This document shows, one piece after another, positions 1 to 51,292 of a stretch of DNA of 64,000 nucleotides. The translations under genes were made by a program, and so were the position numbers. The notes beneath the pieces are model-generated. The model ran no database searches and had not been told where the DNA came from. It was given only the letters and a program-made list of their open reading frames with translations. The number at the start of each line of letters is the position of its first letter. Position 1 is the stretch's first letter. Source of the stretch: Sphingomonas sp. (GTDB lineage: Bacteria > Pseudomonadota > Alphaproteobacteria > Sphingomonadales > Sphingomonadaceae); NCBI GenBank assembly GCA_035538935.1, contig DATLJH010000009.1:18378-82377 (forward strand), given 5' to 3'.

Positions 1-522
1 GGGCAGCAGCCTGACGGCAAGCTCGCCGGCCTTGCGGCCCGCCAGCACCTCGTCCTGCGACGCCAGCGCGACGAGGCCGGGATAGACATCCTTCACGCTG
101 CGCGTGCGCGGGTCGCCGACCAGCGCCGCGACCGCCGCGACGGGCACGTCCGCCTTGTTCGCGCGGCGCACCCAGCCTTCGGCCACCACCGAATCGAGCG
201 GCATGATCGCGATGCCGTCGACATGCTGCGCGATCAGGTCGTCGATGTCGTTGGCCTGTTTCTGCACGCCGCCCTGCGCGTCGAGCACGATCGCCGCCGC
301 GCCCGCTTTGGCCGCCGCCTCGGTGAAGCCCTTGGCGATCGCCGCGGCGAAGGGATAGCTCAGGCCCACCGTCGAGAGGCCGTAGCGCCCGCCGCCGCGA
401 TCCACGGCGGCCGCGACCGTGCCGTTCGCCGCGCGCGCCGCCTGCCGCACGCCGACCAACGATGCGATCGCGACGATCGCGACCACCGCCGTCAGCAGCA
501 GGGGCAGGGGCTTCCAGCGCAT
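1..522 (-). CDS. RbsB/LacI-type sugar-binding protein, truncated by the window edge
   Basis: Not in the ORF track; translated by hand from the ATG at 522: MRWKPLPLLLTAVVAIVAIASLVGVRQ (hydrophobic leader), then SYPFAAAIAKGFTEAA...VLDAQGGVQKQANDIDDLIAQHVDGIAIMPLD, typical of type I periplasmic binding proteins. Starts 2 nt after the MaoC stop. Confidence 0.8.
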   Translation of the reverse strand, partial: MRWKPLPLLLTAVVAIVAIASLVGVRQAARAANGTVAAAVDRGGGRYGLSTVGLSYPFAAAIAKGFTEAAAKAGAAAIVLDAQGGVQKQANDIDDLIAQHVDGIAIMPLDSVVAEGWVRRANKADVPVAAVAALVGDPRTRSVKDVYPGLVALASQDEVLAGRKAGELAVRLLP

Positions 523-524
523 CG

Positions 525-977
525 TCAGGCCGCGCCCTCGCGCCGCTCGACGAGGTAGAGATGCTCGCAGGCGAGCACGGTCTCGCCGCGCTGGTTCTGG
601 ATATCGACCTTCTCGACGACGACGCCGTGCCCGGTGCGCTTGGGATGATCCCGCTTTTCCGTAATTGTGGTAACGGTGTGGATGGTATCGCCGATATGCA
701 CCGGGCGGATGAAGCGCAGCCGGTCATAGCCGTAGGACATGGCGCGCGGGTTGATCGTGGTCGCGGTCAGCCCGATGCCGACGCTGAACACCAAAGTGCC
801 GTGCGCGATGCGCTGGCCGATCTCCTGCGTCGCGCACCAGGCGGCATCGACGTGATGCGGGAAATAATCGCCGGTATGGCCGGCATGGATGACGAAATCG
901 GCCTCGGTGATCGTGCGGCCGAAGCTGCGGCGTTCCGAGCCGATCTCGATATCCTCGAAAAACTGTTCGACGATCAT
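525..977 (-). CDS. MaoC-family (hot-dog fold) dehydratase / (R)-enoyl-CoA hydratase
   Basis: [13 protein letters not shown]...RTITEADF...GDYFPHHVD...RIAHG...[17 protein letters not shown] overlap with the upstream CoA-transferase stop. Confidence 0.88.
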
Positions 978-2170
978 GATAGGTCTCCGTCGATCGCGGC
1001 GCGGTCCGCGCCCAGCCTGGGCGCGGCACGGCCGTTGGCGAGCACTTGCCCGTCGATGCGGATCGGGCAGCGGGTGAGGGTGAGCGTCGCGCCATCGGGC
1101 GCGCGGACCGCCTGCGTCGCATCGAGCGCGGCGAAGGCGGGATCGGCCCGCAATGCCGGCCAGTCGAGCACCGGCGCGGCCCAGATCCCGGCGGGTTCGA
1201 GGATGGCGAGCCAGGCGGCGGTGGTGTCCTGCGCCAGCCGGTCGCGCAGGTGGCGCTTGATCGCGTCGCGGCTGGTGAACCAGTCGTCGCGCGGGAAAGC
1301 CGCAAGCGCGGGGATGCCGAGCAATTCGCCGAGCCGATCGACCGGCGCCATCGCCAGCGCGATATATCCGTCGGCGGTCGGGTAGATGCCGTAGGGCGCG
1401 GCGAGGTAGACGTTGCCGTTGGCAATGTCGCTGCGCGGCGGCATCGCTTCGTCGCGGTTGAGATGGACCGAGAGATGCTCGAACTGGAGGTCGATCGCGG
1501 CCTCGATCAGGCTGACGTCGACGCGGCCGCCGGTGCCGGTGGTGCCGCGACGGACGAGCAACGCGAGCACGCCCTGGCAAAGCTGCGCACCCGCCATCAT
1601 GTCGGTGATCGCGAGGCCGGCGGGAACCGGCGGGCTACCCGCGTCGCCCGACAGCCAGGCGAGGCCGGATCGCGCCTGCACCAGCAGATCCTGCCCCGGC
1701 AGGTCGCGCCATGGCCCCTCCGCGCCGTAGCCGCTGACGCCTGCATAGACGAGGCGCGGGTTGAGCGCGCGCACGTCGTCCCAGCCCAGCCCCAGCCGCT
1801 CCATGATGCCGGGCCGGAAATTGTGGATCAGCACGTCGGCGCGCGCGATCAGGCGCTTGACCGCGGCGAGATCGGCCGCATCCTTGAGGTCGGCGGTGTA
1901 GCTCTGCTTGCCGCGATTGATCGCGTGGAACAGCGCGCTGTCGGAATCGAAGGCCAGATCGGCGAGGAACAGCCCCCGGCAGGCATCGCCGCCGTCGGGC
2001 CGCTCGACCTTGATGACGCGCGCGCCCAGATCGGCGAGCCGCAGCGCACAGGACGGCCCGGCGAGGAACTGGCTGAAATCGAGCACGACGAGCCCGTCGA
2101 GCGGCCGCGCGGGTGTCCCCCGATCCGCCCCCGGCGTGCTGTTCCCCGTCGCCGACAACCGCTCCTCCAA
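974..2170 (-). CDS. CaiB/BaiF class III CoA-transferase
   Basis: [57 protein letters not shown], and the catalytic Asp region [11 protein letters not shown] start. Confidence 0.92.
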
Positions 2171-2270
2171 TTAGTGATTTAATATGATGTATCTTCACAA
2201 ACGCTATGGGCGTGACTAGAGCGAGTCAACAGGTTTCGGGATAGAGCCGAAGAGGCATGAGAGGGCGACG

Positions 2271-3371
2271 ATGCGCGGGATGACGTGGGACCATGCGCGG
2301 GGATACGATCCGCTGGCCGCAGCCGCGCGGTTGTGGGCCGAGCGGACGGGCGTGTCGATCGCCTGGGATCGCCGGTCGCTCCAGGATTTCGAGAGCTATC
2401 CGGTAGAGACGCTGGCGCAAGAGTACGACCTGATCGTCATCGATCATCCGCATGTCGGCGGCGTCGCCGAAAGCGGGTGCCTGGTGCCGTTCGAGGGCGA
2501 CCTCGGCGAGATCGCCGCCGGATCGGTGGGCGGATCGTTCGAGAGCTATTGCTGGCAGGGGCGGCAATGGGCACTGCCGATCGACGCCGCCGCGCAGGTG
2601 CAGGCCTGGGTACCCGGTCGGATCGCGGCGCCGGTGACCGACTGGCGCGCGCTTGCCGCACTGGCGGCAGAGGGGCGGGTGGCGATCCCGCTGCGCGCGC
2701 CGCATTCGCTGATGAGCCTGTTCACCCTGTGCGGGCTCGAAGGTACGGGCCCCGACGTGGATGGCATCGACCTGTTTCCCGCGGGTGCGGTGCAGGCGTG
2801 CGCGCGGCTTGCCGAGCTCGCGGCGGCGGTCGATCCGGCGATGTACGACATGGACCCGATCGCGGTGCTCGAGGCGATGGCCGATCCGGCCGCACGGTTC
2901 GCGGTCGCGCCGCTGACCTACGGTTATGTGAGCTATGCCGTCGCCGGGTTCCGCCCCGTTCGGCTCGCCTTCGCGGACATCCCCGCGCTCGACGCCGGGC
3001 CGGCGGGATCGGCGCTCGGCGGCACGGGAATCGCCGTGTCGGCTTATGGCGGCGATCCCGCCGCCGCCGCCGACTTCGCGCGCTGGGTGGCGAGCGGCGC
3101 GGTGCAGCGCGACCTGTTCGCCGCCAATGGCGGGCAGCCGGCGCACGCGCTTGCCTGGGAAGCGGACGGCATCAACGCCGCGACCGGCGACTTCTATCGG
3201 GCGACACGCGACACGCTCGACCGCGCCTTCCTGCGGCCGCGCCATCATGGCTACATGGCGTATCAGGACGCCGCTTCGCATCGGCTCAACGAAGGACTGC
3301 GCGGCGGGGAAGCGCCTGCGGCGATCGTCGCGGCGCTCAACGCGCTCTATCGCGAAAGCCGCCAGCCGTGA
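2271..3371 (+). CDS. Type II solute-binding-protein-fold protein without a signal peptide
   Basis: MRGMTWDHARGYDPL...YDLIVIDHPHVG...WALPIDAAAQV. In-frame TAG at 2217 with no start codon between it and 2271. Confidence 0.75.
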   Translation: MRGMTWDHARGYDPLAAAARLWAERTGVSIAWDRRSLQDFESYPVETLAQEYDLIVIDHPHVGGVAESGCLVPFEGDLGEIAAGSVGGSFESYCWQGRQWALPIDAAAQVQAWVPGRIAAPVTDWRALAALAAEGRVAIPLRAPHSLMSLFTLCGLEGTGPDVDGIDLFPAGAVQACARLAELAAAVDPAMYDMDPIAVLEAMADPAARFAVAPLTYGYVSYAVAGFRPVRLAFADIPALDAGPAGSALGGTGIAVSAYGGDPAAAADFARWVASGAVQRDLFAANGGQPAHALAWEADGINAATGDFYRATRDTLDRAFLRPRHHGYMAYQDAASHRLNEGLRGGEAPAAIVAALNALYRESRQP

Positions 3372-4507
3372 GCGAAGCGCCGCTCGACGGCCTGCTCGTC
3401 ATCGACATGGCGCAATTCCTGTCGGGGCCGTCGGCGGCGCTGCGGCTCGCCGATCTCGGCGCGCGCGTCATCAAGATCGAGCGGCCGGGCAGCGGCGACA
3501 TCTGCCGGACGCTCTATCTGAGCGACACCGACGTCGAGGGCGATTCGACGCTGTTTCACGCGATCAACCGCAACAAGCAGAGCCTCGCCGCGGACCTGAA
3601 GGACGCGGCCGACCTCGCGCGCGTCAAGCGGCTGCTCGCGCGCGCCGATGTCGTGATCCAGAATTTCCGCCCCGGCGTCGCCGAGCGGCTGGGCCTCGGC
3701 GCCGAGGCGCTGATCGCGGCCAATCCGGGCCTGATCGTCGGCACCATCTCGGGCTATGGCGAGGACGGGCCGTGGGTCGATCTGCCGGGGCAGGATCTGC
3801 TCGCGCAGGCGCTGTCGGGGGTGATGTGGCTGGGCGGCGACGCCGGGGACGGACCGGTGCCGGTGGGGCTGTCGGTTGCCGACATGCTCGCCGGGCACAT
3901 CCTGACCGAAGGCGTGCTCGCCGCGCTCGTCCGGCGCGGGCGGACGGGGAAGGGCGGGCTGGTGCAGACGAGCCTGCTCGAGGCGATCGTCGATTTCCAG
4001 TTCGAGGTGCTGACGACGCACCTCAACGACGGCGGCCGGTTGCCCGCGCGCGCCGCGCGGCGCAACGCCCATGCCTATCTCGGTGCGCCCTACGGCGTCT
4101 ATCGCACGAGCGACGGTTGGTTGGCGCTGGCGATGATGCCGCTGGAAAAGCTGGCGCCGCTGCTCGACCTCGATTTCGGCGCGGCGGAAGCGTTCGCCGA
4201 CCGGGATCGTGTGAAGGCGATGATCGCCGATCGGCTCGCCACGCAACCGACCGACGCGTGGCTCGAGCTGCTGCGCGCGCACGACATCTGGTGCGCGCCG
4301 GTGCTCGACTGGCCGCACTTGCTGGCCTCGGAGGCGTTCCGCCGGCTCGACCTGCTGCAACGCGTGGCGCGCGCCGATGCCGCGATCGCGACGACGCGCG
4401 CGCCGTGGCGGCTCGACGGCGCGCGCCCAGAGAGCGGCACTGGCGCGCCACGCGTGGGCGAGCATAGCGCGCAGATCCGCCGAGAATTCGGATTGGATGA
4501 GGAGTAG
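3368..4507 (+). CDS. CaiB/BaiF class III CoA-transferase (second paralog)
   Basis: GTG at 3368 overlaps the previous stop (GTGA). [65 protein letters not shown]. Confidence 0.92.
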   Translation: MSEAPLDGLLVIDMAQFLSGPSAALRLADLGARVIKIERPGSGDICRTLYLSDTDVEGDSTLFHAINRNKQSLAADLKDAADLARVKRLLARADVVIQNFRPGVAERLGLGAEALIAANPGLIVGTISGYGEDGPWVDLPGQDLLAQALSGVMWLGGDAGDGPVPVGLSVADMLAGHILTEGVLAALVRRGRTGKGGLVQTSLLEAIVDFQFEVLTTHLNDGGRLPARAARRNAHAYLGAPYGVYRTSDGWLALAMMPLEKLAPLLDLDFGAAEAFADRDRVKAMIADRLATQPTDAWLELLRAHDIWCAPVLDWPHLLASEAFRRLDLLQRVARADAAIATTRAPWRLDGARPESGTGAPRVGEHSAQIRREFGLDEE

Positions 4508-4510: not shown

Positions 4511-7500
4511 ATGACGGGTGGGATGAAGCGGCGGTTGGTCGGGGTGGCGCTGGGGGCGCTGGCGCTGGGCGGCGCGGGGGCGGTCGCGCAGGATCGGCCC
4601 GCGATGCCCGATGCCGAGACCTTCCGCACGCCGCCCGCCGAGACGCGGCCCGACACGCTCTATTTCTGGATGAACGGCAACGTCACGCGCGAGGGGCTCG
4701 ACGCCGATCTTGAGGCGATCCGCGACGTCGGGCTGGATGGCGTGATGGTGTTCGACGGCAGCAACGACATCCCCAAGGGGCCGGTCGATTATCTGAGTCC
4801 ACAATGGCTCGATCTGATGACGCACATGATCGGCAAGGCCGACACGCTGGGGCTCAAGGTCGGGATGCACAACGCGCCGGGCTGGTCGTCGAGCGGCGGC
4901 CCGTGGATCACGCCCGCCTTGTCGATGCAGCAGATCGTGTGGACCGAAACCACCGTGGACGGCGGCCGCACGGTGACGCAGACGCTGCCGCGCCCCTATG
5001 CCAAGCACGATTTCTACCGCGATGCCGCGGTGATCGCCTTCCCGGCATCGGCGGGGGACGAGAGCGTCTATCGCGATGCGATCGCGGGGATGACGCTGGG
5101 CGACGCCGAGACGCCGGCCGCCCAATTGACCGACCGCGATCTACATTCGAGCGCCGCGGCGGGGCCGGACGCGCCGCTGGTGATCCGGATGAAGGCGCCC
5201 TTCGCCGCGCAGGCGGTGACGCTTTACGGCGAGAAGGAAACGCCCGCGTTCAACGCGACGATCGAGGCGTCCGACGACGGCCAGCGCTGGCGCCCGGTGA
5301 CCAAGGTCAGCGTGGGGGCGGAGCGCGGCATCGAAAGCCCCGGCACCGCCAATTTCGATGAAACCACCGCGCGTTACTTCCGCGTGACGCCGAACCGCGA
5401 GGTCAAGCTGGCCGAGGCGTTGCTCTATGCCACGCCGCGCATTCCCGACTGGGACGTCAAGGCCGAGCACGATTTCGCGATGGAGGACGTGCCCGAGCAG
5501 GCGCCCGCCGACAAGCTCGCGCGCTACGCGATCGATCCGGCACGCGTGATCGACGTCACCGACAAGGTGGATGCGGCGGGCGTGCTGCGCTGGAAAGCGC
5601 CCGCGGGCCGCTGGACGATCCTGCGCCTGGGCCACACCACGACCGGCAAGGTCAACGTCTCGGCGTCGGAATCGGGGACGGGGCTGGAAGTCGACAAGCT
5701 CGACCGGGATGCGGTCGATTTCCAGTTCGACCACACCGTCGGGCGCGTCGCCAAAGCTGCCGGGGCGCTGACGGGCAAGACCTTCGACAAGATCGAGATC
5801 GACAGTTTCGAGGCGGGTCTCCAGAACTGGACCGTCAAGCTCCCCGCCGATTTCCAGCGGCTGAACAACTATGCGATCACGCCGTGGCTGCCCGCGCTGA
5901 CGGGGCGGATCGTCGGCGATGTCGAGCAATCGAACCGATTCCTGTTCGATTTCCGCCGCACGCTCGCCGAGCTGATGGTCGACAATTATTACGGCCGGAT
6001 GGAGCAGCGCGCCAACGCGGCGGGGCTCGATTTCTACACCGAGGGCTACGGCCCCGGCCCGTTCGACGAGCTCCAGGTGTCGGGCCGCGCCCAGGTGCCG
6101 ATGACCGAATTCTGGACGCGCACGCCCTGGACCGACAACCGCACGGTCAAGATGGTCGCCTCCGCCGCGCACGTCTACGGCAAGCCGGTGGTCGCCGCCG
6201 AGGCCTTTACCGGCGAGGCGGAGACGAGCCGCTGGTCCGATTATCCCTATGCGCTGAAAGCACTCGGCGATCAGATGTTCGCGCAGGGCTTCAACCAGAT
6301 CTTCTTCCACCGCTACGCGCACCAGCCGAACGTCAATCCCGTGCCGGGCATGACGATGGGGCCGTGGGGCATGAACATGGACCGGACCAACACCTGGTTC
6401 GGCGAGGCCAGGCCCTGGCTCGATACGCTGGCGCGCAGCCAATATATGCTGCGGCAGGGCCATTATGTCGCCGACGTGCTCTATTTCGTCGGCGAGAACA
6501 GCCCGAACCAGGCCGAATATGTCCGCCCCGACGTGTCGCCGGACACCAACCCGCTGATCGGGCGGCATTTCGATCCCAGGATGCCGCCTGGCTACAATTA
6601 CGATCTCGTCAACGCCGAGGTGCTGCTGAAGCGCGCGCGGATCGAGGACGGGCGGATCGTACTACCTAACGGCGCCTCGTACCGGATGCTGGCGCTGCCC
6701 TCCGACATTCGTGCGATGACGCCCGAGCTGGCGCACCGGCTGCGCGAGATGGTCGAGCAAGGCATGGTGCTGCTGGGCCCGAAGCCGACCTATTCGTTGA
6801 CGCTGCACGACGACGCGACGTTCGACGCCGATACCGCCGCTTTGTGGGGATCGGGCGAGGCGGCCGGGCCGCGCGCCGTCGGTAAGGGCCGCGTCTATGC
6901 CGATGGCGAGATCGGCGGCGTGCTCGGCGATCTCGGCGTCGGGCCGGACGCGATCTGCCGAACCGCTTCACCCGACGGGCAGGTGGTGTGGCTGCACCGC
7001 GCGCTGACGGGCGGGGATTCCTATTTCGTCGCCAACCGGCAGCGCCGCTACGAAACCGTCACCTGCGACTTCCGCGTCGCGGGCAAGGCGCCCGAATTGT
7101 GGAATCCCGAAACCGGCGGCGTCACCGCGCCCGCGGTCTATGACGTGACGGGCGGGCGCACGCGGGTGTCGTTCACGCTGTCGCCGGTCGGATCGACCTT
7201 CGTGATGTTCGAGCATCCGGCGAGCGATGCCGCGATCAAGTGGGTCGCGCGCGACGGCAAGCGCTTCGTCGATGCCGATGCGGCGGCGCCGGCGAAGGTC
7301 GCGGCGCCCGCGGACAGCTTCACGCTGTCGATCTGGGCCAAGCCCGACATCGACCTGCGCCTGATGCCCGACGAGGGCACGACCGGGCGCATCAACGAGA
7401 CGGGGAAGAACTATCTCGTTCCCGCGCGCTCGGGCCGCGATATGCACGGGGAGGGGACGGCCGTTGCGGGCCTCGCGGTCGGGCGCAACGGCGCGTTCGT

Positions 7501-8554: not shown

Positions 8555-8564
8555 TTGCTGGCGT

Positions 8565-8707: not shown

Positions 8708-8714
8708 TTATCTT

Positions 8715-16443: not shown

Positions 16444-16447
16444 ACGC

Positions 16448-42565: not shown

Positions 42566-43840
42566 ATGACTCGTGCATCCAGCCTCTTGTCGTCCGCGGC
42601 CCTCGCGGCATTCGCGCTACTCCTCGCCGTGCCCGCGTCGGCGCAGCTCGACGGCAATTCGGACGAGGCGAAGGTGGGCGCCTATACGCTGCCCGATCCG
42701 CTGGTGATGGCGGACGGCACGCGCGTCACCAGCGCCGAACAATGGACGACCCGCCGCCGGCCCGAGCTGCTCGCGCTCTTCACGCATCATATCTACGGCG
42801 TCGTGCCGCCCGCGCCCGAGCACATGCGGGTCGAGGTGACCGATCTCGATCGCCACGCGCTCGACGGTCGTGCGGTGCGCAAGCAGGTGACGCTCCTTTT
42901 CGACGGCCGCGCGGAGGGGCCGCAGACGTCGCTGCTGCTCTACCTGCCCGCCGGCGCAAAGGGGCCGGTGCCGGTCTTCGTCGGCCTCAATTTCCACGGC
43001 AACCAGGCCGTCGCGGCCGATCCGGCGATCCACATCGCGACCGGCTGGGTCGCGGCGCCGGGCAAGGGCATCGTCAAGCATCGCGCGACCGAGGCCTCGC
43101 GCGGGATCGAGGCCGGCGAATGGCCGATCGCGCAGATCCTCGCGGCGGGCTACGGCGTCGCGACCTTCTTCCCCGGCGACCTCTACCCCGACGGCGACGG
43201 CAAGCGCGCCGACAGCATCCAGCCGCATTATCCGATCAGCCCCTCGGCGCCCGATCATTGGGGTGTGATCGCCACCTGGGCCTGGGGGCTGAGCCGCGCC
43301 TGCGACTATCTCGTGACCGATCCGGACGTGGACGAACACCGCGTCATCGCGATCGGCCATTCGCGCTACGGCAAGGCGGCGCTCTGGGCAGGCGCCGTCG
43401 ATCCGCGCTTCGCGATGGTCGTCTCGAACGACAGCGGGGAGGGCGGGGCCGCGCTCTATCGCCGCGATTTCGGCGAGACGATCCGGGTGATGAACGATTA
43501 CTGGTTCGCGCCCCGCTTCAAGACCTATGCGTCACGCGCGGAGGCGCTGCCGATCGATGCGCACGAGCTGATCGCGCTGATCGCGCCGCGCCCCGTCTAC
43601 GTCGCGAGCGCGACCGAGGATTGGTGGTCGGACCCGAAAGGCGAGTTCCTCGCCGCGCGCGGGGCCGATCGGGTCTATCACCTGTTCGGCTACAAGGGCC
43701 TGGAGACCGACACCATGCCGCGCCCCGATCATCCGATCGGCGGTCGTATCGGCTATCACATCCGCACCGGCCCGCACGAGATCACGCCGGAGGACTGGAC
43801 CAACTACATCGCCTTCGCGGATCGCACCCTGAAACGCTAG
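42566..43840 (+). CDS. CE15 glucuronoyl esterase-family protein
   Basis: Signal peptide; YTLPDPL, LNFHGN, WGVIATWAWGLSR, nucleophile motif GHSRYGK, SGEGGAAL.RR..GET, ELIALIAPRP, GPHEIT. Confidence 0.87.
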   Translation: MTRASSLLSSAALAAFALLLAVPASAQLDGNSDEAKVGAYTLPDPLVMADGTRVTSAEQWTTRRRPELLALFTHHIYGVVPPAPEHMRVEVTDLDRHALDGRAVRKQVTLLFDGRAEGPQTSLLLYLPAGAKGPVPVFVGLNFHGNQAVAADPAIHIATGWVAAPGKGIVKHRATEASRGIEAGEWPIAQILAAGYGVATFFPGDLYPDGDGKRADSIQPHYPISPSAPDHWGVIATWAWGLSRACDYLVTDPDVDEHRVIAIGHSRYGKAALWAGAVDPRFAMVVSNDSGEGGAALYRRDFGETIRVMNDYWFAPRFKTYASRAEALPIDAHELIALIAPRPVYVASATEDWWSDPKGEFLAARGADRVYHLFGYKGLETDTMPRPDHPIGGRIGYHIRTGPHEITPEDWTNYIAFADRTLKR

Positions 43841-44190: not shown

Positions 44191-47082
44191 TTACGGTGTC
44201 CTCAGCCTGAGCGAGATGCCGATGCGGCGATCCTCCTGCAGGTAATCGCGCGGGTGGTTGGGCGTCGCCTGATAGCTCTGCTTCATCTCGCGCGTCAGGT
44301 TGACGCCGTCGAGGCTGACCGAGAAGAACGGCGTGAAATCATAAGAGATGCTGGCGTCGAGCTGGCCGTAGGGGCGGCGATAGATCGGCACCGCGCCGGT
44401 GCCGTTGCCGTTGACGGTGTCCAGATAGTCGTTGCGCCAGTTCCACGCCGCGCGCGCGGTGAAGCCGTATTTCTCGTAGAAGCCGACGAGGTTGTAGCTC
44501 CACCGCGACAGCCCTTGCAGCGGCGTCTGCAACGGGCGGCCGTTGGCGTCGAACGAGACGAGGCTCGGCGCCTTCGAATCGACATAGGTGAGGTTGGCCT
44601 GCGCGCCGAAACCATCGAATGGCGAAGGCAGGAAGCTGAAGAAGGTGTTGCCGCCGACCTCGAAGCCCTTGATCGTGCCGGCGTCGCCGTTGACCTGCGC
44701 CGTCACCTGGAAGGTCTGCGGCCCCTTGCCGGGCACGTCGAAGGTCTGATCGTAGACCGCGGTGCCCTCGAAATTCTTGACCTTCTTGTAGAACAAGGTG
44801 CCGTAAAGCATCGTCGTCGAACTCGGATACCATTCGAGTGCGATGTCGGCCTGGTCGACGGTCAGCGGCTTGAGGTTCGGATTGCCGCCGGTGCCGGTGT
44901 TGTTGACGAATTCGGGCGTGCAGGCCGGATCGGAGGCATCGCCGCCGTCGGGGCACCCCGTGGGCGTGCGGTAATTCTCCGTCAGGTTGAAGATCGCGCG
45001 CATGTCATAGAAGGGCGGGCGCGAGAGCCCACGCGAAGCCGCGAAGCGCGCCTGCAGATTGTCGGTGAGGTGGTAGCGCAGGTTCAGGCTGGGCAGCACC
45101 TCGGTATAATCCTGCGCGCCGCTGAACGGGGTGGTGACGTTGATGTCGGTCGTAGGCGCGTCGGCGTCGCGATAGGTGAGCACGTACTGCCCGACGGCGT
45201 CGTTCTTGGTCTTGATGACGCGCACGCCGATATTGCCGTCGAGCGGCAGGCCCCCGCTGCGCGCGAAATCGAAGCGCAGCATCGCATAGGCGGCGTAGGT
45301 CTTCTCGTGCTGCGTGTTGATGTCGTTGCCGGTGTAGTCGATCAGATTGCGCGGATAGGGGCCCGCGCCGCCCGAAGGCCCGGCGGCTTCCGAAAGATTG
45401 AGGAAGGTCTCGCCGCCGTTGCGCAAGGTCGGCCAATTGAAGAAGGGCACGTTGCCCACCACCCCCGTGCCGTCGCCATAGAAGAAATCGGCGTCGAACG
45501 GGTTCGAGATCGCATAATTGGTGAGCGGCAGCGAATTGCCCGCCCAGGGTGCCGACAGGAACTGCCAGTTGTACGGCGTCGAGCGGTTGATCGCCGAGCG
45601 ATCGGTGTAGCGCACGCCCGCGGTGAAATCCTGGAGCACGCTGCCTTCGTCGAAATCCCATTCGAGGTCGAGCCGGCCGGCATATTCATGCGCGTTGCTG
45701 TCCTCGAGGTGATCCATCAGCGCGATGATGTAGTAATTCGCCGGATCGTCGACGCCCGCGGGGCCGAACTGGATCTGCGGCAGCTTGCCCGACAGATCGA
45801 TCGAGAGCGTGCCGCCGTCGCGTTGCGGGAAGGCGGTGAAGCTGCGGTTCTCGGCGGTGGCGTCGACATATTGGAAGTCGCCGTTGATCTTGAGGTGATC
45901 GCCCGCGTGCCACTTGAACCCGGCCGAATAATCGGTGGTGATCGATCGGTTGCTGGTGAACTGGGTGTTGTTCGCGGTCGCGCCGAAGCCCGAGAAGCTG
46001 CCGCTGACGAATGTCCCGTCCTCGTCGAACGCGAACGGCCCGTTCGGCTGCATCGTGTTGGTCGCGCAATTGACGTCGGTGCCGCAGGTGACGAACGACG
46101 TGTAGTTGGGCGTCTCGATCAGATAATCGGTGCGGAACACCTGGCCGTAGAATTCGAGATCGCTCGACGGCGCCCATTGCACCGCGCCGTAGAAGCCGCG
46201 CCGCTTGCGCTGGCCGAAGGTGATGCCGATCCCCGCACCGTCGGGGACGGAGCGCACCGTGCCTTCGGAACCAGGGATGTCGCTGCGGTCGAAATAGGGC
46301 TCGATCGTGATGTCGTCGGATCGGAACGCGCCCTCGAAGGTGGAGACGTCGACGAGCACGCCGATGTCGCCGATCCCGGTCTTCCAGCGCTTGCTCGCGA
46401 GCAGCGAGGCGTTGAAGCGGCTGTCGTCGATCAGGTCGTAATAGTTGAGCCCGACCGTGCCCGAGAGGAGGAGCTTGTCGTCCGCCTGGTCGAACGGCAT
46501 CCGCGTGCGCAGGTTGACGAGGCCGCCCACGCCGCCCTCGATCATCATCGCCGACGGGTTCTTGTAGACGTCGACGCCGGCGAGCAGCTCCGAGGGCACG
46601 TCCTCGAAGCTCAGCGCACGGCCGGTGTTGCCACGTGTTCCATCACCGAAGCTCGCGCCGAAGACATCGCGGCCGTTGACCTCGGTGCGCACCTGGGTGA
46701 GGCCGCGGATGGCGATGCTCGATCCCTCGCCGCGGTTGCGCGTGATCTGGATGCCCGAGATGCGTTGCAGCGCCTCGGCGACGTTCTTGTCGGGCAGCTT
46801 GCCGATGTCGATCGCGGTGACCGAATCGACGAACTGGCCCGAATTGCGCTTGATCGCCTGCGCGGAGGCGAGCGAGGCGCGCAGGCCGGTGACGACGATC
46901 GTGTCGGCTTCTTGGTCGTCGGGCGGAAGCTGCTGATCGGGCGGCGGCGCATCGGCGGTGGGCTCCGTCGTCGTCTGTGCGCGCGCGGGAACCGCCAGCA
47001 GCGCGAGCGCCGAAGCGCCGACCAGCCAGGCCGTTCGCAGGGCCGCCGTCGCGCTGCCCGTCCGCGTGTCGATCACCGCCAT
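44191..47082 (-). CDS. TonB-dependent receptor
   Basis: Signal peptide, TIVVTGLRASL, DSVTAIDIGKLPDKNVAEALQRISGIQITR, DVPSELLAGVDVYK, GGNPNLKP, YGQLDASISY. Confidence 0.93.
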   Translation of the reverse strand: MAVIDTRTGSATAALRTAWLVGASALALLAVPARAQTTTEPTADAPPPDQQLPPDDQEADTIVVTGLRASLASAQAIKRNSGQFVDSVTAIDIGKLPDKNVAEALQRISGIQITRNRGEGSSIAIRGLTQVRTEVNGRDVFGASFGDGTRGNTGRALSFEDVPSELLAGVDVYKNPSAMMIEGGVGGLVNLRTRMPFDQADDKLLLSGTVGLNYYDLIDDSRFNASLLASKRWKTGIGDIGVLVDVSTFEGAFRSDDITIEPYFDRSDIPGSEGTVRSVPDGAGIGITFGQRKRRGFYGAVQWAPSSDLEFYGQVFRTDYLIETPNYTSFVTCGTDVNCATNTMQPNGPFAFDEDGTFVSGSFSGFGATANNTQFTSNRSITTDYSAGFKWHAGDHLKINGDFQYVDATAENRSFTAFPQRDGGTLSIDLSGKLPQIQFGPAGVDDPANYYIIALMDHLEDSNAHEYAGRLDLEWDFDEGSVLQDFTAGVRYTDRSAINRSTPYNWQFLSAPWAGNSLPLTNYAISNPFDADFFYGDGTGVVGNVPFFNWPTLRNGGETFLNLSEAAGPSGGAGPYPRNLIDYTGNDINTQHEKTYAAYAMLRFDFARSGGLPLDGNIGVRVIKTKNDAVGQYVLTYRDADAPTTDINVTTPFSGAQDYTEVLPSLNLRYHLTDNLQARFAASRGLSRPPFYDMRAIFNLTENYRTPTGCPDGGDASDPACTPEFVNNTGTGGNPNLKPLTVDQADIALEWYPSSTTMLYGTLFYKKVKNFEGTAVYDQTFDVPGKGPQTFQVTAQVNGDAGTIKGFEVGGNTFFSFLPSPFDGFGAQANLTYVDSKAPSLVSFDANGRPLQTPLQGLSRWSYNLVGFYEKYGFTARAAWNWRNDYLDTVNGNGTGAVPIYRRPYGQLDASISYDFTPFFSVSLDGVNLTREMKQSYQATPNHPRDYLQEDRRIGISLRLRTP

Positions 47083-47246: not shown

Positions 47247-47259
47247 GCATATATGAAAA
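47247..47259. promoter_or_regulatory. Candidate IclR-type operator
   Basis: The reverse complement TTTTCATATATGC differs by one base from the site upstream of fucD; lies between the divergent TBDR and halogenase genes. Confidence 0.5.
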
Positions 47260-47309
47260 TTGGCGTGCGCGGCGGCGTGCGCTACACGCGCAATGCGGGG
47301 AGAATGAGG

Positions 47310-48896
47310 ATGACCGGGCGGGCGATACGCAGCATCGTGATCGTGGGCGGCGGCACTGCCGGCTGGATGGCGGCCGCGACGATCGGGCGCGCGCTCGCCG
47401 ATCGCGACGTGACCGTTACCGTGGTCGAATCGGACGCGATCGGCACGGTCGGGGTGGGGGAGGCGACGATCCCGCCGATCCTGCACCTGAACCAGCTTCT
47501 GGGCATCGACGAGAACGACTTCGTCCGCCGCACCAACGCGACCTTCAAGCTGGGGATCGAGTTCGTCGGCTGGGGCAAAGCGGGGGAGCGCTACGTCCAT
47601 CCCTTCGGCCGCTACGGCGCGGACATCGGGGCGCTGCCCTTCCACCAATATTGGCTGCGGGCGCGGGCGGCGGACCCGGCGGCGGCCGGCGCGCTCACCG
47701 ATTACAGCCTGCCGAGCATGGCGGCGCTCGCGGGCAAGTTCTGCCGCCCCTCGCCGGACCCGAAGAACACGCTGTCGAACATCGCCTACGCCTACCAGTT
47801 CGACGCCTCACTCTACGCGAAGATGCTCCGCGAGATCGCCGAGGCGGCGGGCGCGGTACGGCGCGAGGGCCGCGTCGTCGAGGTGGCGATGCACGACAAC
47901 GGCTTCGTGCGCGCCGTGCGGCTGGAAAGCGGCGAGGAGATCGAGGCCGATTTCTTCATCGATTGCTCGGGCTTTCGCGGGCTGCTGATCGAAGGCGCGC
48001 TCAAGACCGGCTACGAGACGTGGACGCATTGGCTGCCGTGCGACCGCGCGATTGCCTTGCCCTGCGCCAAGACGGGCGACCCCGAGCCGCTGACGCGTTG
48101 CACCGCGCATCGGGCAGGCTGGCAATGGCGCATCCCCCTCCAGCACCGCATCGGCAACGGCCACGTCTATTCGAGCGTGCACATGGAGGATGACGAGGCC
48201 GAGGCGATCCTGCGCGCCAACCTGGAAGGCGCGCCGCTCGCCGAGCCCAACAAGCTGCGTTTCACCACCGGGCGGCGGCGGCTCTTCTGGAACCGCAACG
48301 TACTCGCGCTCGGGCTGGCCTCAGGATTCCTCGAACCGCTCGAATCGACCAGCATCCATCTGATCCAGACCGGGCTGTCGAAGCTGCTCAACCTGTTCCC
48401 GGACCGCGATTTTCACCAGCCCGACGTGGATTTCTACAACCGCTCGGCGGCGGTGGAATATGAACGCATCCGCGATTTCATCATCCTGCACTATCGCGTG
48501 AACCAGCGCGTCGGCGAGCCGTTCTGGGATGCCTGCCGCGCGATGTCGCTGCCCGACACGCTCGAGGAGAAGCTCGCGCTGTGGCGGCGGCACGGCCGCG
48601 TCTTCCGCGTCGACGACGAATTGTTCGGCGAATCGAGCTGGGTCGCGGTGCTCGAAGGGCAGGGCTGGCAGCCCGAGCGCTACGATCCGCTGGCCGATGC
48701 CTTGCCCGATGCCAAGCTTGCCAAGCTGCCCGCGATCCGCGCCGCGATCGCGCGCGGGGTGGCGGCCATGCCTGAGCACGCGCGCTTCATCGCCGAACAA
48801 TGCGTGTCTCCATCCGCCGCGCCAAGTCCGGCGGCGCCCGCCGGGTTGGTCACGACCCGCGCCGGCGGCATCGGCCCGGCAGTGGTGCAGCGATAA
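47310..48896 (+). CDS. Flavin-dependent halogenase (tryptophan halogenase family)
   Basis: GGGTAGW FAD motif, IGTVGVGEATIP, TFKLGIEF (catalytic Lys position), WQWRIPL (WxWxIP), FLEPLESTSIH. Confidence 0.9.
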   Translation: MTGRAIRSIVIVGGGTAGWMAAATIGRALADRDVTVTVVESDAIGTVGVGEATIPPILHLNQLLGIDENDFVRRTNATFKLGIEFVGWGKAGERYVHPFGRYGADIGALPFHQYWLRARAADPAAAGALTDYSLPSMAALAGKFCRPSPDPKNTLSNIAYAYQFDASLYAKMLREIAEAAGAVRREGRVVEVAMHDNGFVRAVRLESGEEIEADFFIDCSGFRGLLIEGALKTGYETWTHWLPCDRAIALPCAKTGDPEPLTRCTAHRAGWQWRIPLQHRIGNGHVYSSVHMEDDEAEAILRANLEGAPLAEPNKLRFTTGRRRLFWNRNVLALGLASGFLEPLESTSIHLIQTGLSKLLNLFPDRDFHQPDVDFYNRSAAVEYERIRDFIILHYRVNQRVGEPFWDACRAMSLPDTLEEKLALWRRHGRVFRVDDELFGESSWVAVLEGQGWQPERYDPLADALPDAKLAKLPAIRAAIARGVAAMPEHARFIAEQCVSPSAAPSPAAPAGLVTTRAGGIGPAVVQR

Positions 48897-48941
48897 GATC
48901 ACGAGCGAAGGTGGCGCTCGACGATCCGCCATCCAAAAATC

Positions 48942-49024
48942 CGTCACCCCAGCGAAAGCTGGGGTCTCTATGTGGCGAGTGCGTCGTTCGACGTTGAAAG
49001 ACCCCAGCTTTCGCTGGGGTGACG
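48942..49024. repeat. REP-like palindromic doublet
   Basis: CGTCACCCCAGCGAAAGCTGGGGTCT ... AGACCCCAGCTTTCGCTGGGGTGACG, a long perfect inverted pair. Confidence 0.8.
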
Positions 49025-49075
49025 ATATTTCGGATTTCTCGTCTCCGCGCCCTTCGGAAGAGAGGTCGGCCGCGT

Positions 49076-50377
49076 TTATCCCGTCGCCCGGCGCGCGCCC
49101 GCCGGGCGTGGCCACGCATAATCGGCGAGCGTCTCCGGCTTCATCTCGATCGAGAAACCCGGCGCTTGCGGCGCGCGGTATGCCGCGTTCTCGACCACGC
49201 AGGGCTCGACGAAATGCTCGTGCAGATGGTCGATATATTCGGCGACGCGGCCCTCCTTGGTGCCGGCGAAGCACAGATAGTCGATCATCGCGAGGTGCTG
49301 GACATATTCGCACAGGCCGACGCCGCCCGCGTGCGGGCAGACGGGCAGATCGTATTTCGCCGCCATCAGCAGCACCGCCAGCACCTCGTTGACGCCGCCC
49401 AGCCGGCACGCGTCGAGCTGGACGACGTCGATCGCGCCCTCGGCCATGAACTGTTTGAAGAGGATGCGGTTCTGGCACATCTCGCCGGTCGCGACCTTGA
49501 TCGGCGCGACGCCCTCGCGGATGCGGCGGTGGCCGGCGACGTCGTCGGGGCTGGTCGGCTCCTCGATGAACCAGGGCCGCGCGAAGGCGAGCGCGCGGAC
49601 GTGCGCGATCGCGTCGTCGACCTCCCAGATCTGGTTGGCGTCGATCAGCAGCTTGCGGTCGGGCCCGATCACCTCGCGCGCGAGGCCGACGCGGCGGATA
49701 TCGTCGTCGAGCGAGCGCCCGACCTTGAGCTTGATGTGGTCGAACCCCTGGTCGATCGCCTCGCGGCATAATCGGGCGAGCTTGTCGTCCGAATAGCCGA
49801 GCCAGCCCGCCGAGGTGGTGTAGCAGGGATAGCCGGTCGCCTCGAGATCGGCGATCCGCGCCGCCTTGCCCTCGGCGCGTTCGGTGAGCAGCGCCAGCGC
49901 CTCGTCGGGGGTGATGCAATCGGTGATGTAGCGGAAGTCGATCAGGCCGACGATCTGTTTGGGTGCCATCTCGCCGATCAGTCGCCACAAAGGCTTGCCC
50001 GCGCGCTTGGCGAGCAGATCCCACACCGCGTTCACCACCGCGCCGGCGGCGAGGTGGATCACACCCTTTTCGGGGCCGATCCAGCGGAGCTGGCTGTCGC
50101 CTGTGACATGCCGCCAGAACCGCGCGCCGTCCTCGGCGATCCAGTCGAGGTCGAGGCCCTCGATCAGCGGCGCGAGCGCCTCGATCGCCGCGCAGCAGAT
50201 GTCGTTGCCGCGGCCGATCGTGAAGGTGAGCCCGTGCCCGGCGAGGCCCGGCGCGTCGGTTTCGAGGATGCAATAAGCCGCCGAATAATCGGGATCGGGG
50301 TTCATCGCGTCCGATCCGTCGAGCTGCATCGAGGTCGGGAAGCGGATGTCGAGGACGCGGAGCCGCGTGATCTTCAT
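49076..50377 (-). CDS. fucD: L-fuconate dehydratase (enolase superfamily, ENOSF1-like)
   Basis: RFPTS..LDGSDAMNPDPDYSAAY, TFTIGRGN, YTTSAGWLGYSDDK, KLKVG, DANQ, FIEEPTSPDD, ATGE, CPHAGGVGLCE, EYIDHLHEHF. Confidence 0.92.
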   Translation of the reverse strand: MKITRLRVLDIRFPTSMQLDGSDAMNPDPDYSAAYCILETDAPGLAGHGLTFTIGRGNDICCAAIEALAPLIEGLDLDWIAEDGARFWRHVTGDSQLRWIGPEKGVIHLAAGAVVNAVWDLLAKRAGKPLWRLIGEMAPKQIVGLIDFRYITDCITPDEALALLTERAEGKAARIADLEATGYPCYTTSAGWLGYSDDKLARLCREAIDQGFDHIKLKVGRSLDDDIRRVGLAREVIGPDRKLLIDANQIWEVDDAIAHVRALAFARPWFIEEPTSPDDVAGHRRIREGVAPIKVATGEMCQNRILFKQFMAEGAIDVVQLDACRLGGVNEVLAVLLMAAKYDLPVCPHAGGVGLCEYVQHLAMIDYLCFAGTKEGRVAEYIDHLHEHFVEPCVVENAAYRAPQAPGFSIEMKPETLADYAWPRPAGARRATG

Positions 50378-50454
50378 CGTGCGCGCCCGAACGCGGTGGC
50401 CGGATTGCGGGTCGAATTGGCCACGTCGCGTCCACCTTTCGTCAATGGATCACG

Positions 50455-50470
50455 TTTTCATATGTGCAAA
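50455..50470. promoter_or_regulatory. Candidate IclR-type operator upstream of fucD
   Basis: TTTTCATATGTGCAAA, an imperfect palindrome in the short gap between the IclR gene and fucD. Confidence 0.5.
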
Positions 50471-50497
50471 GCACATTCGGCGCAAGCGGCCTTTGAC

Positions 50498-51292
50498 TCA
50501 GATGCGGCTGTCGCCTTCGGTCAATTGGGTGGAGAGGCGGTCGGCGGCCGCGCGCACGGCGCTGGCGGTGTCGTCGGGCGTGGCCGAGGGCAGCACCTTC
50601 TTGATGTAGGGCACCGTCAGCGCCGCCGCCGCTGCGCCGCCGCGCATCACCGGCGCGGAGATGTCGGTGATCCCTTCGACGAAGCGGCTGGTCGTCAGCT
50701 CGACCTTGCGCTTGGCGATCGCCCGCGCATGGGCGCGGAACGCCTCCAGCGCGGCCCTGGGCAGCTTGGGGTCGAAGAGCTTTTCCCAGCGCTCCTGGAT
50801 GTCGGCGGGCTGGAAGGCGTAGAGTACCGCACCCGAGGCCGATTCATGCAGCGCGCGGCGATAGCCGACACGCACCGAGAAGCCGAGCTGCTCGCTCGAT
50901 TCCATCCGCGCGATCACCACCATCTGCCCGCGCGTGTGGACCGCGAGGTGGCACGATTGCTCGACCTCGATCGTCAATTGCCGCATGATCGGCAGCGCGA
51001 TCTCGACGAGGTTCTGGATGCGCGGCTGCTGCATGCCGAGCGAGAATAGCCGATCGGTCAGCCGATAGCCGTCGCTGCTGCGATCCTGCTCGATATAGCC
51101 GCGATATTCGAGCACCTGCACCATGCGGAACAGCTCGCCATGCGAGCGTTCGAGGCGGTTGACGATCGCGGTCAGCGTCATCGGCAGCGGCTCGCTGGCG
51201 AGCAGTTCTAGGATGTCGAGCCCCTTGTCGAGCGCGGGTGCGCGATAGCGTTGCGGCGCGCCGCTCGTGGCCTCGTCGTCCTTCTTCGCCAC
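50498..51292 (-). CDS. IclR-family transcriptional regulator
   Basis: YRAPALDKGLDILELLA HTH, ESASGAVLYAF, GITDISAPV. Confidence 0.9.
   Translation of the reverse strand: MAKKDDEATSGAPQRYRAPALDKGLDILELLASEPLPMTLTAIVNRLERSHGELFRMVQVLEYRGYIEQDRSSDGYRLTDRLFSLGMQQPRIQNLVEIALPIMRQLTIEVEQSCHLAVHTRGQMVVIARMESSEQLGFSVRVGYRRALHESASGAVLYAFQPADIQERWEKLFDPKLPRAALEAFRAHARAIAKRKVELTTSRFVEGITDISAPVMRGGAAAAALTVPYIKKVLPSATPDDTASAVRAAADRLSTQLTEGDSRI

Follow-up and report, generated by a model that had tools for sequence, protein, structure and literature searches.

An apiose-centred gene island in a sphingomonad and its possible role in scavenging rhamnogalacturonan II-type pectic fragments

Which polymer, if any, is served by the sugar-utilization genes that fill positions 1–51292 of a 64,000-nucleotide (nt) stretch of Sphingomonas sp. 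DNA (GenBank assembly GCA_035538935.1, contig DATLJH010000009.1, positions 18,378–82,377)? This whole stretch is termed the window. An earlier sequence-only reading of the window described a 51-kb region resembling a polysaccharide utilization locus (PUL) and matched it to the sugars of rhamnogalacturonan II (RG-II), which is often called the most complex plant glycan, or to apiogalacturonan. The analysis presented here suggests that the island is an apiose-centred system, based on TonB receptors, for the scavenging of RG-II-type pectic fragments. It appears to consist of separately regulated modules and to be incomplete when compared with the systems of Bacteroides. A probability of about 0.6 is given to this reading. 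Apiogalacturonan and oligomers of rhamnogalacturonan I (RG-I) are possibly also substrates.

The window has about 67% G+C and many shadow open reading frames (ORFs), and genes were called by a codon log-odds model trained on the obvious genes. This codon-usage call gives 47 tightly packed genes, of which 35 (g1–g35) lie within positions 1–51292. Start positions were corrected for g15 (to the GTG at 21119) and for g22 (to the ATG at 29800). Proteins of the window were identified by Pfam, NCBIfam and PDB searches. For comparison with relatives, 80 loci containing a g15 homologue, each with 10-kb flanks, were scored against the window proteins; all ORFs of these loci were clustered and the recurrent unknowns were scanned. 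An ORF cluster labelled unk293 and the N-terminus of a GH141-like ORF proved to be shadow-frame artefacts of ORF calling in high-GC DNA.

The centre of the island is a group of apiose genes. g8 (11204–12187, minus strand) encodes a xylose-isomerase-like TIM barrel protein (PF01261) and is a candidate D-apiose isomerase of the ApsI type. It matches PDB entry 3KTC with 475 bits. This is a 333 amino acid (aa) structural-genomics entry labelled only "xylose isomerase", presumably from a Pectobacterium. g9 (12209–13003, minus strand) encodes a DeoR-family regulator (HTH_DeoR and DeoRC domains). Divergent from these two genes are g10 (13197–14027, plus strand), g11 (14024–14983, plus strand) and g12 (14980–16443, plus strand), which are translationally coupled. 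They encode an AptA-like N-terminal transketolase subunit (PF00456), an AptB-like C-terminal subunit (PF02779 and PF02780) and an FGGY kinase (FGGY_N and FGGY_C), the last a candidate apulose kinase. g13 (16448–19591, minus strand) encodes an α-L-rhamnosidase of glycoside hydrolase (GH) family 78 with five GH78 Pfam domains and a match of 667 bits to PDB 3W5M. Its N-terminus, as read, has no signal peptide, and the enzyme is probably cytoplasmic. g14 (19818–21098, plus strand) encodes a transporter of the major facilitator superfamily (MFS; MFS_1 and Sugar_tr domains).

A transketolase-dependent D-apiose cluster with apsI, aptA/aptB and an FGGY kinase was reportedly described by Carter and colleagues in 2018. 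Over their full length, g10, g11 and g12 display 48%, 43% and 43% identity to aptA, aptB and the kinase of the Escherichia coli SE15 apiose cluster, in agreement with the apiose catabolism proposed from the sequence alone. Carriers of the SE15 cluster grow on D-apiose, and the gene names aptA and aptB are those used for it (PMC13001218). The Pectobacterium and E. coli ST131 clusters described there share with g8–g12 the split transketolase, the FGGY kinase and a dedicated repressor-type regulator, and g8 is the TIM-barrel candidate for their isomerase. The composition of g8–g12 thus points to the transketolase route for D-apiose. The enterobacterial clusters have an ABC transporter and lack a glycosidase, whereas the sphingomonad version has an MFS transporter and adjoins the gene of an exported glycosidase, g15. 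Most relatives add a TonB receptor to it, and 11 loci a GH140 enzyme.

The linkage of g15 with the apiose genes is not peculiar to the window. Among the 80 loci, an MFS gene is found near g15 in 48, the transketolase pair in 38, the kinase in 36, the isomerase in 31 and the DeoR gene g9 in 27. By a rough estimate, chance would bring a single-copy cluster this close in about 0.5% of 4-Mb genomes. The recurring order is g8-g9, then g10-g11-g12, a receptor, the g14 MFS gene and g15, and this core is spread over sphingomonad genera that include Sphingomonas, Sphingobium, Sphingopyxis, Stakelama and Croceibacterium. A TonB receptor of 1021 aa is present in 24 of the 80 loci at the position where the window has the GH78 gene; g13 fills the slot that is held by the TonB receptor in most relatives.

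The genes attached to this core in other genomes bear on the nature of the substrate. A canonical GH140 (PF13204, 357 bits, with Collagen_bind_2) is encoded in 11 loci, usually in an operon with an MFS gene and divergent from g15. GH78 genes occur inside or beside the core in 13 loci. GH95 together with a TonB receptor is at the core in L040 and L075, and a protein with a marginal, weak match to GH141_M directly follows g15 in three loci (L040, L044 and L075). An Asticcacaulis locus (L041) brings together GH106, GH42, GH127, g15 and a GH28-like gene. Variably attached are g7, GH28, CE15 (a carbohydrate esterase, CE), GH106 and an operon of GH29, GH42, Gfo, ABC and MaoC genes, and UxaC, a reductase of the mannitol dehydrogenase family and lactate dehydrogenases of the FMN and FAD types are recurrent. 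Thus canonical GH140, GH127, GH141-like, GH78, GH95, GH106, GH42 and GH29 proteins are all found beside the same apiose core, and the comparative context supports a substrate of the RG-II or apiose-pectin type. One of the loci (L035) is in a metagenome-assembled genome (MAG) labelled Prosthecochloris vibrioformis and is a typical sphingomonad apiose/g15 locus with 70–87% identity; the contig is probably mis-binned.

The same context can be read as an apiogalacturonan-specific system, in which GH28 and the exported enzymes linked to apiose remove apiose or apiobiose from the galacturonan backbone of duckweed or seagrass pectin and the rhamnose and fucose genes of the island are unrelated. The apiose core with g15 and the MFS gene, the TonB receptor and GH140 of the relatives and the exo-type GH28 in the window all agree with this. 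Such a system would have no need of the GH78 in or beside the core of the window and 13 relatives, nor of the recurrent GH127, GH141-like, GH95 and GH29 proteins, and the source is soil rather than an aquatic habitat. A purely apiogalacturonan-directed function is therefore improbable.

The gene most constantly associated with the core is g15 (21119–22699, plus strand), which the sequence-only reading had called GH140-like. It encodes a protein exported by the twin-arginine translocation (Tat) pathway (motif SRRDMI) and predicted to be a glycosidase, with a (β/α)8 barrel between DUF5060 and DUF5605 domains (PF16586, PF13204 and PF18310). The match to PF13204 is 59.8 bits, which is above the gathering score, and is partial, covering profile positions 2–274 of 320. 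A true GH140 neighbour in a relative matches PF13204 over its full length with 357.5 bits and has Collagen_bind_2, as does BT1012. The sole sequence relative of g15 in the PDB is 4N0R (BVU_0362 of Bacteroides vulgatus), with 38% identity and 355 bits. The GH140 structures 5MSY, 3KZS and 8T9W are matched neither by the single g15 sequence nor by the family profile at E-values up to 10. An AlphaFold model of g15 (pLDDT 77.7) has a TM-score of 0.83–0.86 to 4N0R. Its TM-score to the same three GH140 structures is 0.53–0.65 with 14–16% identity (Foldseek), and it fits them about as well as it fits a GH5 mannanase.

Membership of g15 in GH140 is ruled out by the partial PF13204 match, the DUF5060 and DUF5605 flanks, the lack of a match to GH140 sequences of known structure and the low TM-score. 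The protein is therefore GH140-like in fold but not a member of GH140, and belongs instead to the 4N0R family, with which it shares the three-domain architecture. With BT1012 it shares the (β/α)8 fold of the clan GH-A type, an Asn-Glu pair with a second Glu, and the genetic tie to apiose catabolism; the flanking domains differ, DUF5060 and DUF5605 on the one hand and Collagen_bind_2 on the other. The invariant residues are N271-E272, after predicted strand 4, and E349, after predicted strand 7, the arrangement of retaining enzymes in clan GH-A. The 4N0R entry, from structural genomics and titled "putative glycoside hydrolase", carries no assigned function, and none was found for the DUF5060-DUF5605 family in the literature searched. 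BVU_0362 is absent from the RG-II-co-regulated loci in the text of bioRxiv 10.64898/2026.03.13.711244, and no entry for it was found in the supplement.

In 11 loci GH140 and g15 are found together. For this reason g15 is not simply an orthologous replacement of GH140, and its activity may be other than that of an apiosidase. Its target could be a different linkage of the apiose junction, or a β-D-glycoside that Bacteroides cleaves with GH2. Across the relatives, the association with apiose catabolism is much more constant for g15 than for GH140. Homologues with 60–65% identity to the sphingomonad protein are also found in Actinobacteria (Microbacterium, Arthrobacter and Promicromonospora; L059–L060, L062, L065–L067 and L073–L074). 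A scan of the neighbours in L059 and L060 shows the homologue as an orphan among housekeeping or maltose genes, which is uninformative as to function. These homologues suggest transfer across phyla.

A second exported protein, g7 (8764–10980, minus strand), is 738 aa long with a Sec-type signal and has no match in Pfam or NCBIfam. Its homologues number in the thousands and are annotated as hypothetical or as "GH42 N-terminal domain". An AlphaFold2 model (pLDDT 87.7) shows a (β/α)8 barrel followed by C-terminal β-sandwich domains, and the best Foldseek matches are GH5 (mannanases), GH35, GH164 and GH42 at 9–15% identity. With the invariant residues N251-E252 and E437, g7 is predicted to be a glycosidase of clan GH-A.

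The neighbours of g7 in other genomes are of interest. In 80 metagenomic loci, a GH29 gene directly upstream is the most constant neighbour. Loci of Sphingomonas sp. JC676 and Hephaestia caeni, many of them with two g7 copies, combine g7 with GH29, GH78, a GDSL esterase, GH42 and GH127, and have genes for a RuBisCO-like protein, a DUF1537-type kinase and glycolate-oxidase-like proteins. The RuBisCO-like protein and the DUF1537 kinase together mark an alternative apiose route by way of D-apionate, in which RuBisCO-like proteins of this kind act on 3-oxo-isoapionate-4-phosphate (PMC6302742). In S. saccharophila, g7 is between the rhamnose genes and the block of GH106 and CoA-transferase genes. 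These neighbours link g7 to apiose use through two non-homologous pathways, and to enzymes of the fucose, rhamnose and arabinose types. An 880-aa protein with a Tat signal and no Pfam match is located between the two g7 paralogues of Sphingomonas sp. JC676 (L082, 7295–9937) and is also found between g7 paralogues in two metagenomic loci. It may be a further candidate enzyme of the same system.

The left end of the island contains a GH106 gene and a block of genes that matches no known sugar pathway. g6 (4511–8554, plus strand) encodes a 1347-aa GH106 α-L-rhamnosidase with a Sec signal (PF17132, 708 bits) and extra F5/8-C, LamG and GH2_N-like modules. The best PDB match is 6Q2F (521 bits), presumably the sphingomonad rhamnosidase studied on flavonoid rhamnosides; 5MQM of Bacteroides thetaiotaomicron, which we take to be BT0986, follows with 473 bits. 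Immediately upstream are g4 (2271–3371, plus strand), a protein resembling solute-binding proteins (SBP_bac_8, PF13416, 44.5 bits) that has no signal peptide and is cytoplasmic, and g5 (3368–4507, plus strand), a family III CoA-transferase (PF02515, 322 bits) which overlaps g4 by 4 bp and ends 3 bp ahead of the GH106 gene. On the opposite strand are g3 (974–2170), a second family III CoA-transferase (PF02515, 333 bits; no NCBIfam equivalog reached), g2 (525–977), a MaoC-type (R)-hydratase/dehydratase (PF01575, 73 bits; weak NCBIfam match to RipB/Ich), and g1 (1–522), the N-terminal part of a periplasmic binding protein of a sugar ABC transporter (Peripla_BP_4, 65.5 bits), which runs off the start of the window and is complete on the public contig L001.

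Taking positions 525–4507 of the window together with positions 8103–14023 of L001, the block has two paralogous CoA-transferases (g3 and g5, 57% identical and in inverted orientation), the MaoC hydratase, two cytoplasmic SBP_bac_8-like proteins and a Gfo/Idh/MocA oxidoreductase, in operons with GH106 and a sugar ABC importer. The block is kept in S. saccharophila, where g2 again adjoins a CoA-transferase. g4 is kept with a CoA-transferase and GH106 in L084, and parts of the block adjoin g15 or g7 in other genomes.

Downstream of g15 is g16 (22696–23811, plus strand), which overlaps it by 4 bp and encodes an exported BNR_2 "sialidase family" protein with a Sec-type signal (PF13088, 306 bits). 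GH33 sialidase structures match it at an E-value of about 1e-8 only, and no structure labelled as a hydrolase of 3-deoxy-D-lyxo-heptulosaric acid (Dha) or 3-deoxy-D-manno-octulosonic acid (Kdo) matches it at E-values up to 0.01. As a separate observation, BNR_2 proteins related to g16 are repeatedly found beside GDSL/SGNH esterases (L166 and L167), and once fused to one (P0293, 616 aa), outside glycan loci. This hints at a conserved two-enzyme function unrelated to the island.

Genes g17–g21, all on the minus strand, encode a non-phosphorylative L-rhamnose pathway as judged from their families and order. They are g17 (23780–24676), an Amidohydro_2 lactonase and candidate L-rhamnono-lactonase LRA2 (PF04909, 127 bits; weak L-fucono-lactonase match); g18 (24676–25425), a short-chain dehydrogenase/reductase (adh_short, no equivalog) that by its position in the operon is a candidate 2-keto-3-deoxy-L-rhamnonate 4-dehydrogenase (LRA5); g19 (25422–26279), an LRA6-like 2,4-didehydro-3-deoxy-L-rhamnonate hydrolase of the fumarylacetoacetate hydrolase (FAH) family (NF053535, 485.8 bits, cut-off 500); g20 (26292–27443), L-rhamnonate dehydratase LRA3 (NF011968, 745 bits, cut-off 393); and g21 (27618–28382), L-rhamnose 1-dehydrogenase Lra1 (NF053807, 458 bits, cut-off 400). 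In Sphingomonas, LRA1, 2, 3, 5 and 6 are said by Watanabe and Makino (2009) to yield pyruvate and L-lactate. Two of the enzymes here, Lra1 and the dehydratase, pass their equivalog cut-offs, the hydrolase is 14 bits short, and the lactonase and g18 match at the level of the superfamily only. Unlike the Sphingomonas pathway genes, this block is preceded on the same strand by a gene for a Tat-exported GH28 and is positioned between the apiose and fucose modules. The GH28 protein, g22 (28412–29800, minus strand; motif SRRAIL), is exo-galacturonidase-like (PF00295 and PF12708; PDB 5OLP, 3JUR and 2UVE).

Uronate and fucose genes occupy the rest of the island. g23 (29847–31424, plus strand) encodes a dehydratase of the UxaA/GarD family (GD_AH_C and GD_AH_second). 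Galactarate dehydratase GarD was rejected for it, with 266 bits against a cut-off of 731. Its homologues accompany UxaC and the mannitol-dehydrogenase-family reductase in L030–L035, and because of these neighbours g23 is read as probably an altronate dehydratase of the UxaA type; the two accompanying enzymes are absent from the window. g24 (31513–32289, minus strand) is an IclR-family regulator (HTH_IclR and IclR_C), g25 (32297–33643, minus strand) is the L-fucose:H+ symporter FucP (TIGR00885, 406 bits, cut-off 280) and g26 (33763–34773, minus strand) is a Zn-dependent alcohol or sugar dehydrogenase (ADH_N and ADH_zinc_N). g27 (34847–37189, minus strand) encodes a Tat-exported GH95 (motif SRRGIL; PF22124, 572 bits), an α-L-fucosidase or α-L-galactosidase with PDB matches to 7KMQ (889 bits) and 4UFC (657 bits). 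g28 (37303–38076, plus strand) is a regulator with GntR and FCD domains, whose best NCBIfam match, below cut-off, is ExuR/UxuR. It is followed by g29 (38143–39390, plus strand), the D-mannonate dehydratase ManD of the enolase superfamily (NF043051, 733 bits, cut-off 550).

Both TonB-dependent receptors of the window are here, g30 (39903–42527, plus strand; plug and β-barrel) and g32 (44191–47082, minus strand; Pfam). They are of the Xanthomonas/Caulobacter carbohydrate type (NCBIfam "Xanth-Caul" model TIGR01782, 620 and 682 bits). Between them is g31 (42587–43840, plus strand), a CE15 glucuronoyl esterase with a signal peptide, in which the PF22244 match (112.8 bits, cut-off 27) spans the C-terminal catalytic part. 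g33 (47253–48896, plus strand) encodes a tryptophan-halogenase-family flavoprotein (PF04820, 647 bits). It is divergent beside receptor g32, and its homologues recur near receptors in related loci (L010 and L022). g34 (49076–50377, minus strand) is an L-fuconate dehydratase closely similar to the characterised FucD of X. campestris (full-length matches of 553 bits to 1YEY, 2HXT and 2HNE), and g35 (50498–51292, minus strand), an IclR-family regulator identified by Pfam, is at the right-hand end of the island. In all, Tat motifs are found in g15, GH28 and GH95, and Sec-type signals in GH106, g7, g16 and CE15.

Most of the inventory given by the sequence-only reading is upheld by these searches. 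The GH106, GH78, GH28, GH95 and CE15 genes have Pfam matches, there are two TonB receptors, and the rhamnose, fuconate and hexuronate routes are represented by enzymes with strong matches, for hexuronates ManD and the UxaA/GarD-family dehydratase. The proteobacterial architecture that it described, with TonB receptors that lack SusD, Tat export and oxidative or transketolase sugar routes, is likewise present. L-galactonate catabolism, which it thought probable, gained no specific support, as its sole basis is g26, which has no NCBIfam equivalog.

From this gene content a scheme can be proposed. The two TIGR01782-type receptors would import oligosaccharides. Since no endo-acting lyase or hydrolase is encoded, the cell probably relies on material that is already partly degraded. 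In the periplasm, Sec- and Tat-exported exo-enzymes (GH106, g7, g15, GH28, GH95 and CE15, with GH42 and GH29 from just outside the window) may strip off rhamnose, galacturonate, fucose or L-galactose, remove esters (methyl or other) and release stubs that bear apiose. The products would be taken up by the MFS protein g14, FucP (g25) and the ABC system, and the signal-less GH78 would probably split a disaccharide of the rhamnosyl-apiose type in the cytoplasm. Apiose would then pass through the isomerase, kinase and split transketolase, and the non-phosphorylative Lra1/2/3/5/6 enzymes would turn rhamnose into pyruvate and lactate. FucD would serve for fucose, and ManD with the UxaA-type dehydratase for uronates. 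As each module has its own regulator (DeoR, two IclR and GntR), the island is better described as several regulons in one place than as a single operon of the PUL style.

Detailed knowledge of RG-II breakdown comes from gut Bacteroides and, more recently, from soil Flavobacterium and fungi. The RG-II degradome of B. thetaiotaomicron and its PULs were reportedly described by Ndeh and colleagues in 2017. The island shares with it GH106 (the match to 5MQM), GH78, GH28, GH95 and the logic of periplasmic exo-trimming. It differs in having no SusC/SusD pair and no hybrid two-component regulator, with several local regulators in their place, and in that the island itself encodes the catabolism of the monosaccharides, apiose included. 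The Rha-Api-GalA junction of RG-II is cleaved in B. thetaiotaomicron by the GH78 BT1001 and the apiosidase BT1012 (bioRxiv 10.64898/2026.03.13.711244); the GH78 of the window, by comparison, is located inside the block of apiose genes. The same report finds that B. thetaiotaomicron secretes RG-II-derived Kdo and methylated sugars, extends RG-II use to soil Flavobacterium, with GH29 in the RG-II loci, and to fungi, and shows that most soil Flavobacterium strains secrete RG-II apiose and Kdo, which are eaten by other rhizosphere microbes (bioRxiv 10.64898/2026.03.13.711244). This release of apiose and Kdo fits a role of the sphingomonad as a secondary consumer.

In general form the island resembles the carbohydrate utilization loci of Xanthomonas and Caulobacter that contain TonB-dependent receptors (CUT loci). 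Shared features are the TIGR01782 receptors, the adjoining exported carbohydrate-active enzymes, the MFS and ABC transporters, the local regulators and a tryptophan-halogenase-like gene beside a receptor. When compared with CUT loci, the island is unusually large and composite. CUT loci are said by Blanvillain and colleagues (2007) to combine a TonB receptor, carbohydrate-active enzymes, an inner-membrane transporter and a regulator. In the literature searched, no proteobacterial locus is described for apiose-containing pectin, and nothing links Sphingomonas or Proteobacteria to RG-II degradation.

A number of results weigh against a dedicated RG-II function. A canonical GH140 was not found in the 64 kb by tblastn with the GH140 of a neighbour (E up to 1e-3), and by Pfam the window has no GH127, GH2, GH43, GH105 or pectate lyase (polysaccharide lyase family PL1). 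GH137–139 and GH141–143 are not recognizable by Pfam either, in agreement with the sequence-only reading, and some of these families may lack Pfam models. There is also the absence from the window of any lyase or other endo-enzyme. With the genes seen, the known 21-linkage scheme of RG-II degradation cannot be completed. In three other genomes examined, the homologues of g16 have housekeeping or unrelated genes around them, and g16 adjoins g15 in the nearest MAG alone; the proposed sialidase-like gene thus keeps its domain assignment and loses its context, and the idea of a Kdo or Dha hydrolase gained no support. The relation to RG-II is in sum supported by the context in relatives and weakened by the missing families.

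The absence of lyases bears in addition on a quite different source of sugars. Sphingomonads make sphingans, which are rich in rhamnose and glucuronate, and the host is a sphingomonad that encodes rhamnosidases, GH95, CE15 and ManD, so that turnover of bacterial or algal exopolysaccharides (sphingans, colanic-acid-like polymers or ulvan-like polymers) could be envisaged instead of plant pectin. The window has no polysaccharide lyases or sulfatases, the conserved core is for apiose catabolism, and the GH140, GH127 and GH28 of relatives point to pectin. To our knowledge apiose is not a component of any of these exopolysaccharides. This origin of the substrates is very improbable.

Other results that weigh against a dedicated RG-II function concern the unity of the island, and these favour a "sugar island" whose regulons are independent and share no polymer, in which modules for free or glycoside-bound rhamnose, fucose, apiose and glucuronate are merely adjacent. 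The sugars could then come from many plant sources: RG-I oligomers, the fucose of xyloglucan, esters of glucuronoxylan, arabinogalactan or gum caps, and the rhamnosides and apiosides of flavonoids (apiin, for example). There are at least six transcription units, and the four separate regulators imply independent induction. A repeat search of positions 1–52000 found no operator-like repeat shared by the promoters of the modules; apart from one intergenic hairpin, the repeats detected come from paralogues (the two CoA-transferases and the two TonB receptors). The 51 kb is not kept as a unit: synteny is limited to the nearest MAG (L002), the modules change places from one genome to the next, even within Stakelama, and S. 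saccharophila has g7 and GH106 beside rhamnose genes with no apiose core. What stands of the proposed PUL-like unit is its gene content; the region is a mosaic with no SusC/SusD, and the part of it that recurs in relatives is the apiose core with g15.

The closest matches of single enzymes agree with such mixed sources. The GH28 gene g22 is 29 bp upstream of Lra1 on the strand of the rhamnose genes, and its best NCBIfam match is a BT4153-type rhamnogalacturonidase, an RG-I type enzyme (260 bits, below cut-off). GH95 g27 is most like the Xanthomonas structure 7KMQ, presumably part of a xyloglucan system; the best match of g6 is, as mentioned, 6Q2F, presumably a flavonoid-rhamnoside enzyme. CE15 and ManD, with the ExuR-like regulator, could suit glucuronoxylan or lignin-carbohydrate esters equally well. 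On the other side, the same few attachments to the core turn up repeatedly from genus to genus (GH78, GH95, GH106, GH127, GH140, GH141-like, GH28, GH29, GH42 and g7). The window has none of the backbone enzymes that xyloglucan (GH5/74/31/35) or xylan (GH10/30/67/115/43) would require, and the TonB receptors and the seven enzymes that are exported suggest oligosaccharides as the target in place of free sugars. A collection of modules with no common polymer is the main alternative, if a rather unlikely one.

One public run (X5), from a named organism rather than a metagenome and guessed to be RNA, although RNA and DNA are not separable in it, has fragmentary contigs that are 90–99% identical to most of positions 8000–27999, and a related sphingomonad may be associated with the host organism of the run.

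A wider proposal can be put forward tentatively, and it is doubtful as a whole: that sphingomonads carry a TonB-receptor route for RG-II-type pectin with at least two GH families that lack an assigned function. In this proposal, g15 would be a glycosidase separate from GH140 that releases apiose or acts at the apiose junction, and the target of g7 would be a linkage in an RG-II side chain for which Bacteroides employs GH2 or other families. The CoA-transferase/MaoC/SBP-like/Gfo module may be a new route for one of the acidic or methylated sugars specific to RG-II (aceric acid, Dha, Kdo or 2-O-methyl sugars). The route would constitute a second, independently assembled solution to RG-II, with TonB receptors, Tat export and full apiose, rhamnose and fucose catabolism, and would help to explain who eats the apiose-rich fragments freed by primary degraders in soil. 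The g15 and g7 families and the CoA-transferase module would be candidates for missing or alternative RG-II activities. They could also be tools for preparing defined RG-II oligosaccharides and for annotating the "hypothetical" or "DUF5060" proteins, which number in the thousands. Most valuable among the leads are the g15 and g7 families and the CoA-transferase/MaoC/SBP-like/Gfo module that is kept with GH106 and the ABC importer.

The host is a Stakelama-like soil sphingomonad, in accord with the alphaproteobacterial origin read from the sequence. Homologues of two window proteins are nearly all from Sphingomonadaceae. The closest genome match is an uncultured Stakelama MAG, with 96% identity for g15 and synteny over g8–g24 (L002), and the window sequence turns up in soil metagenomes.

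The right border of the island at the IclR gene g35 is sound because housekeeping genes follow, beginning with a radical-SAM gene of the MiaB/RimO type (51354–52700) and leading to the rpoD side. The flank (51354–64000) further encodes the exo-β-N-acetylmuramidase NamZ, a VWA/CoxE protein with a MoxR-type AAA ATPase, cell wall enzymes with DPBB and CHAP domains, an S15 peptidase, a DUF6975 protein, a PAS protein and the 3′ part of rpoD. At 54477–54944 two overlapping ORFs on opposite strands are indistinguishable, one of them encoding a Lys/Ala-rich protein of 136 aa. The left limit is the edge of the window and not of the locus. On L001 the minus-strand operon runs at least 9.6 kb further, with genes for an ABC ATPase, a permease, the second cytoplasmic SBP-like protein, the Gfo/Idh/MocA oxidoreductase and exported GH42 and GH29 enzymes.

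Between the convergent genes g33 and g34, at 48931–49035, there is a 37-nt inverted repeat with 89% complementarity and a 31-nt spacer. Each arm holds its own small hairpin, CCCCAGC-GAAA-GCTGGGG. The repeat could be a bidirectional terminator, or a small element resembling repetitive extragenic palindromes (REP) or miniature inverted-repeat transposable elements (MITE).

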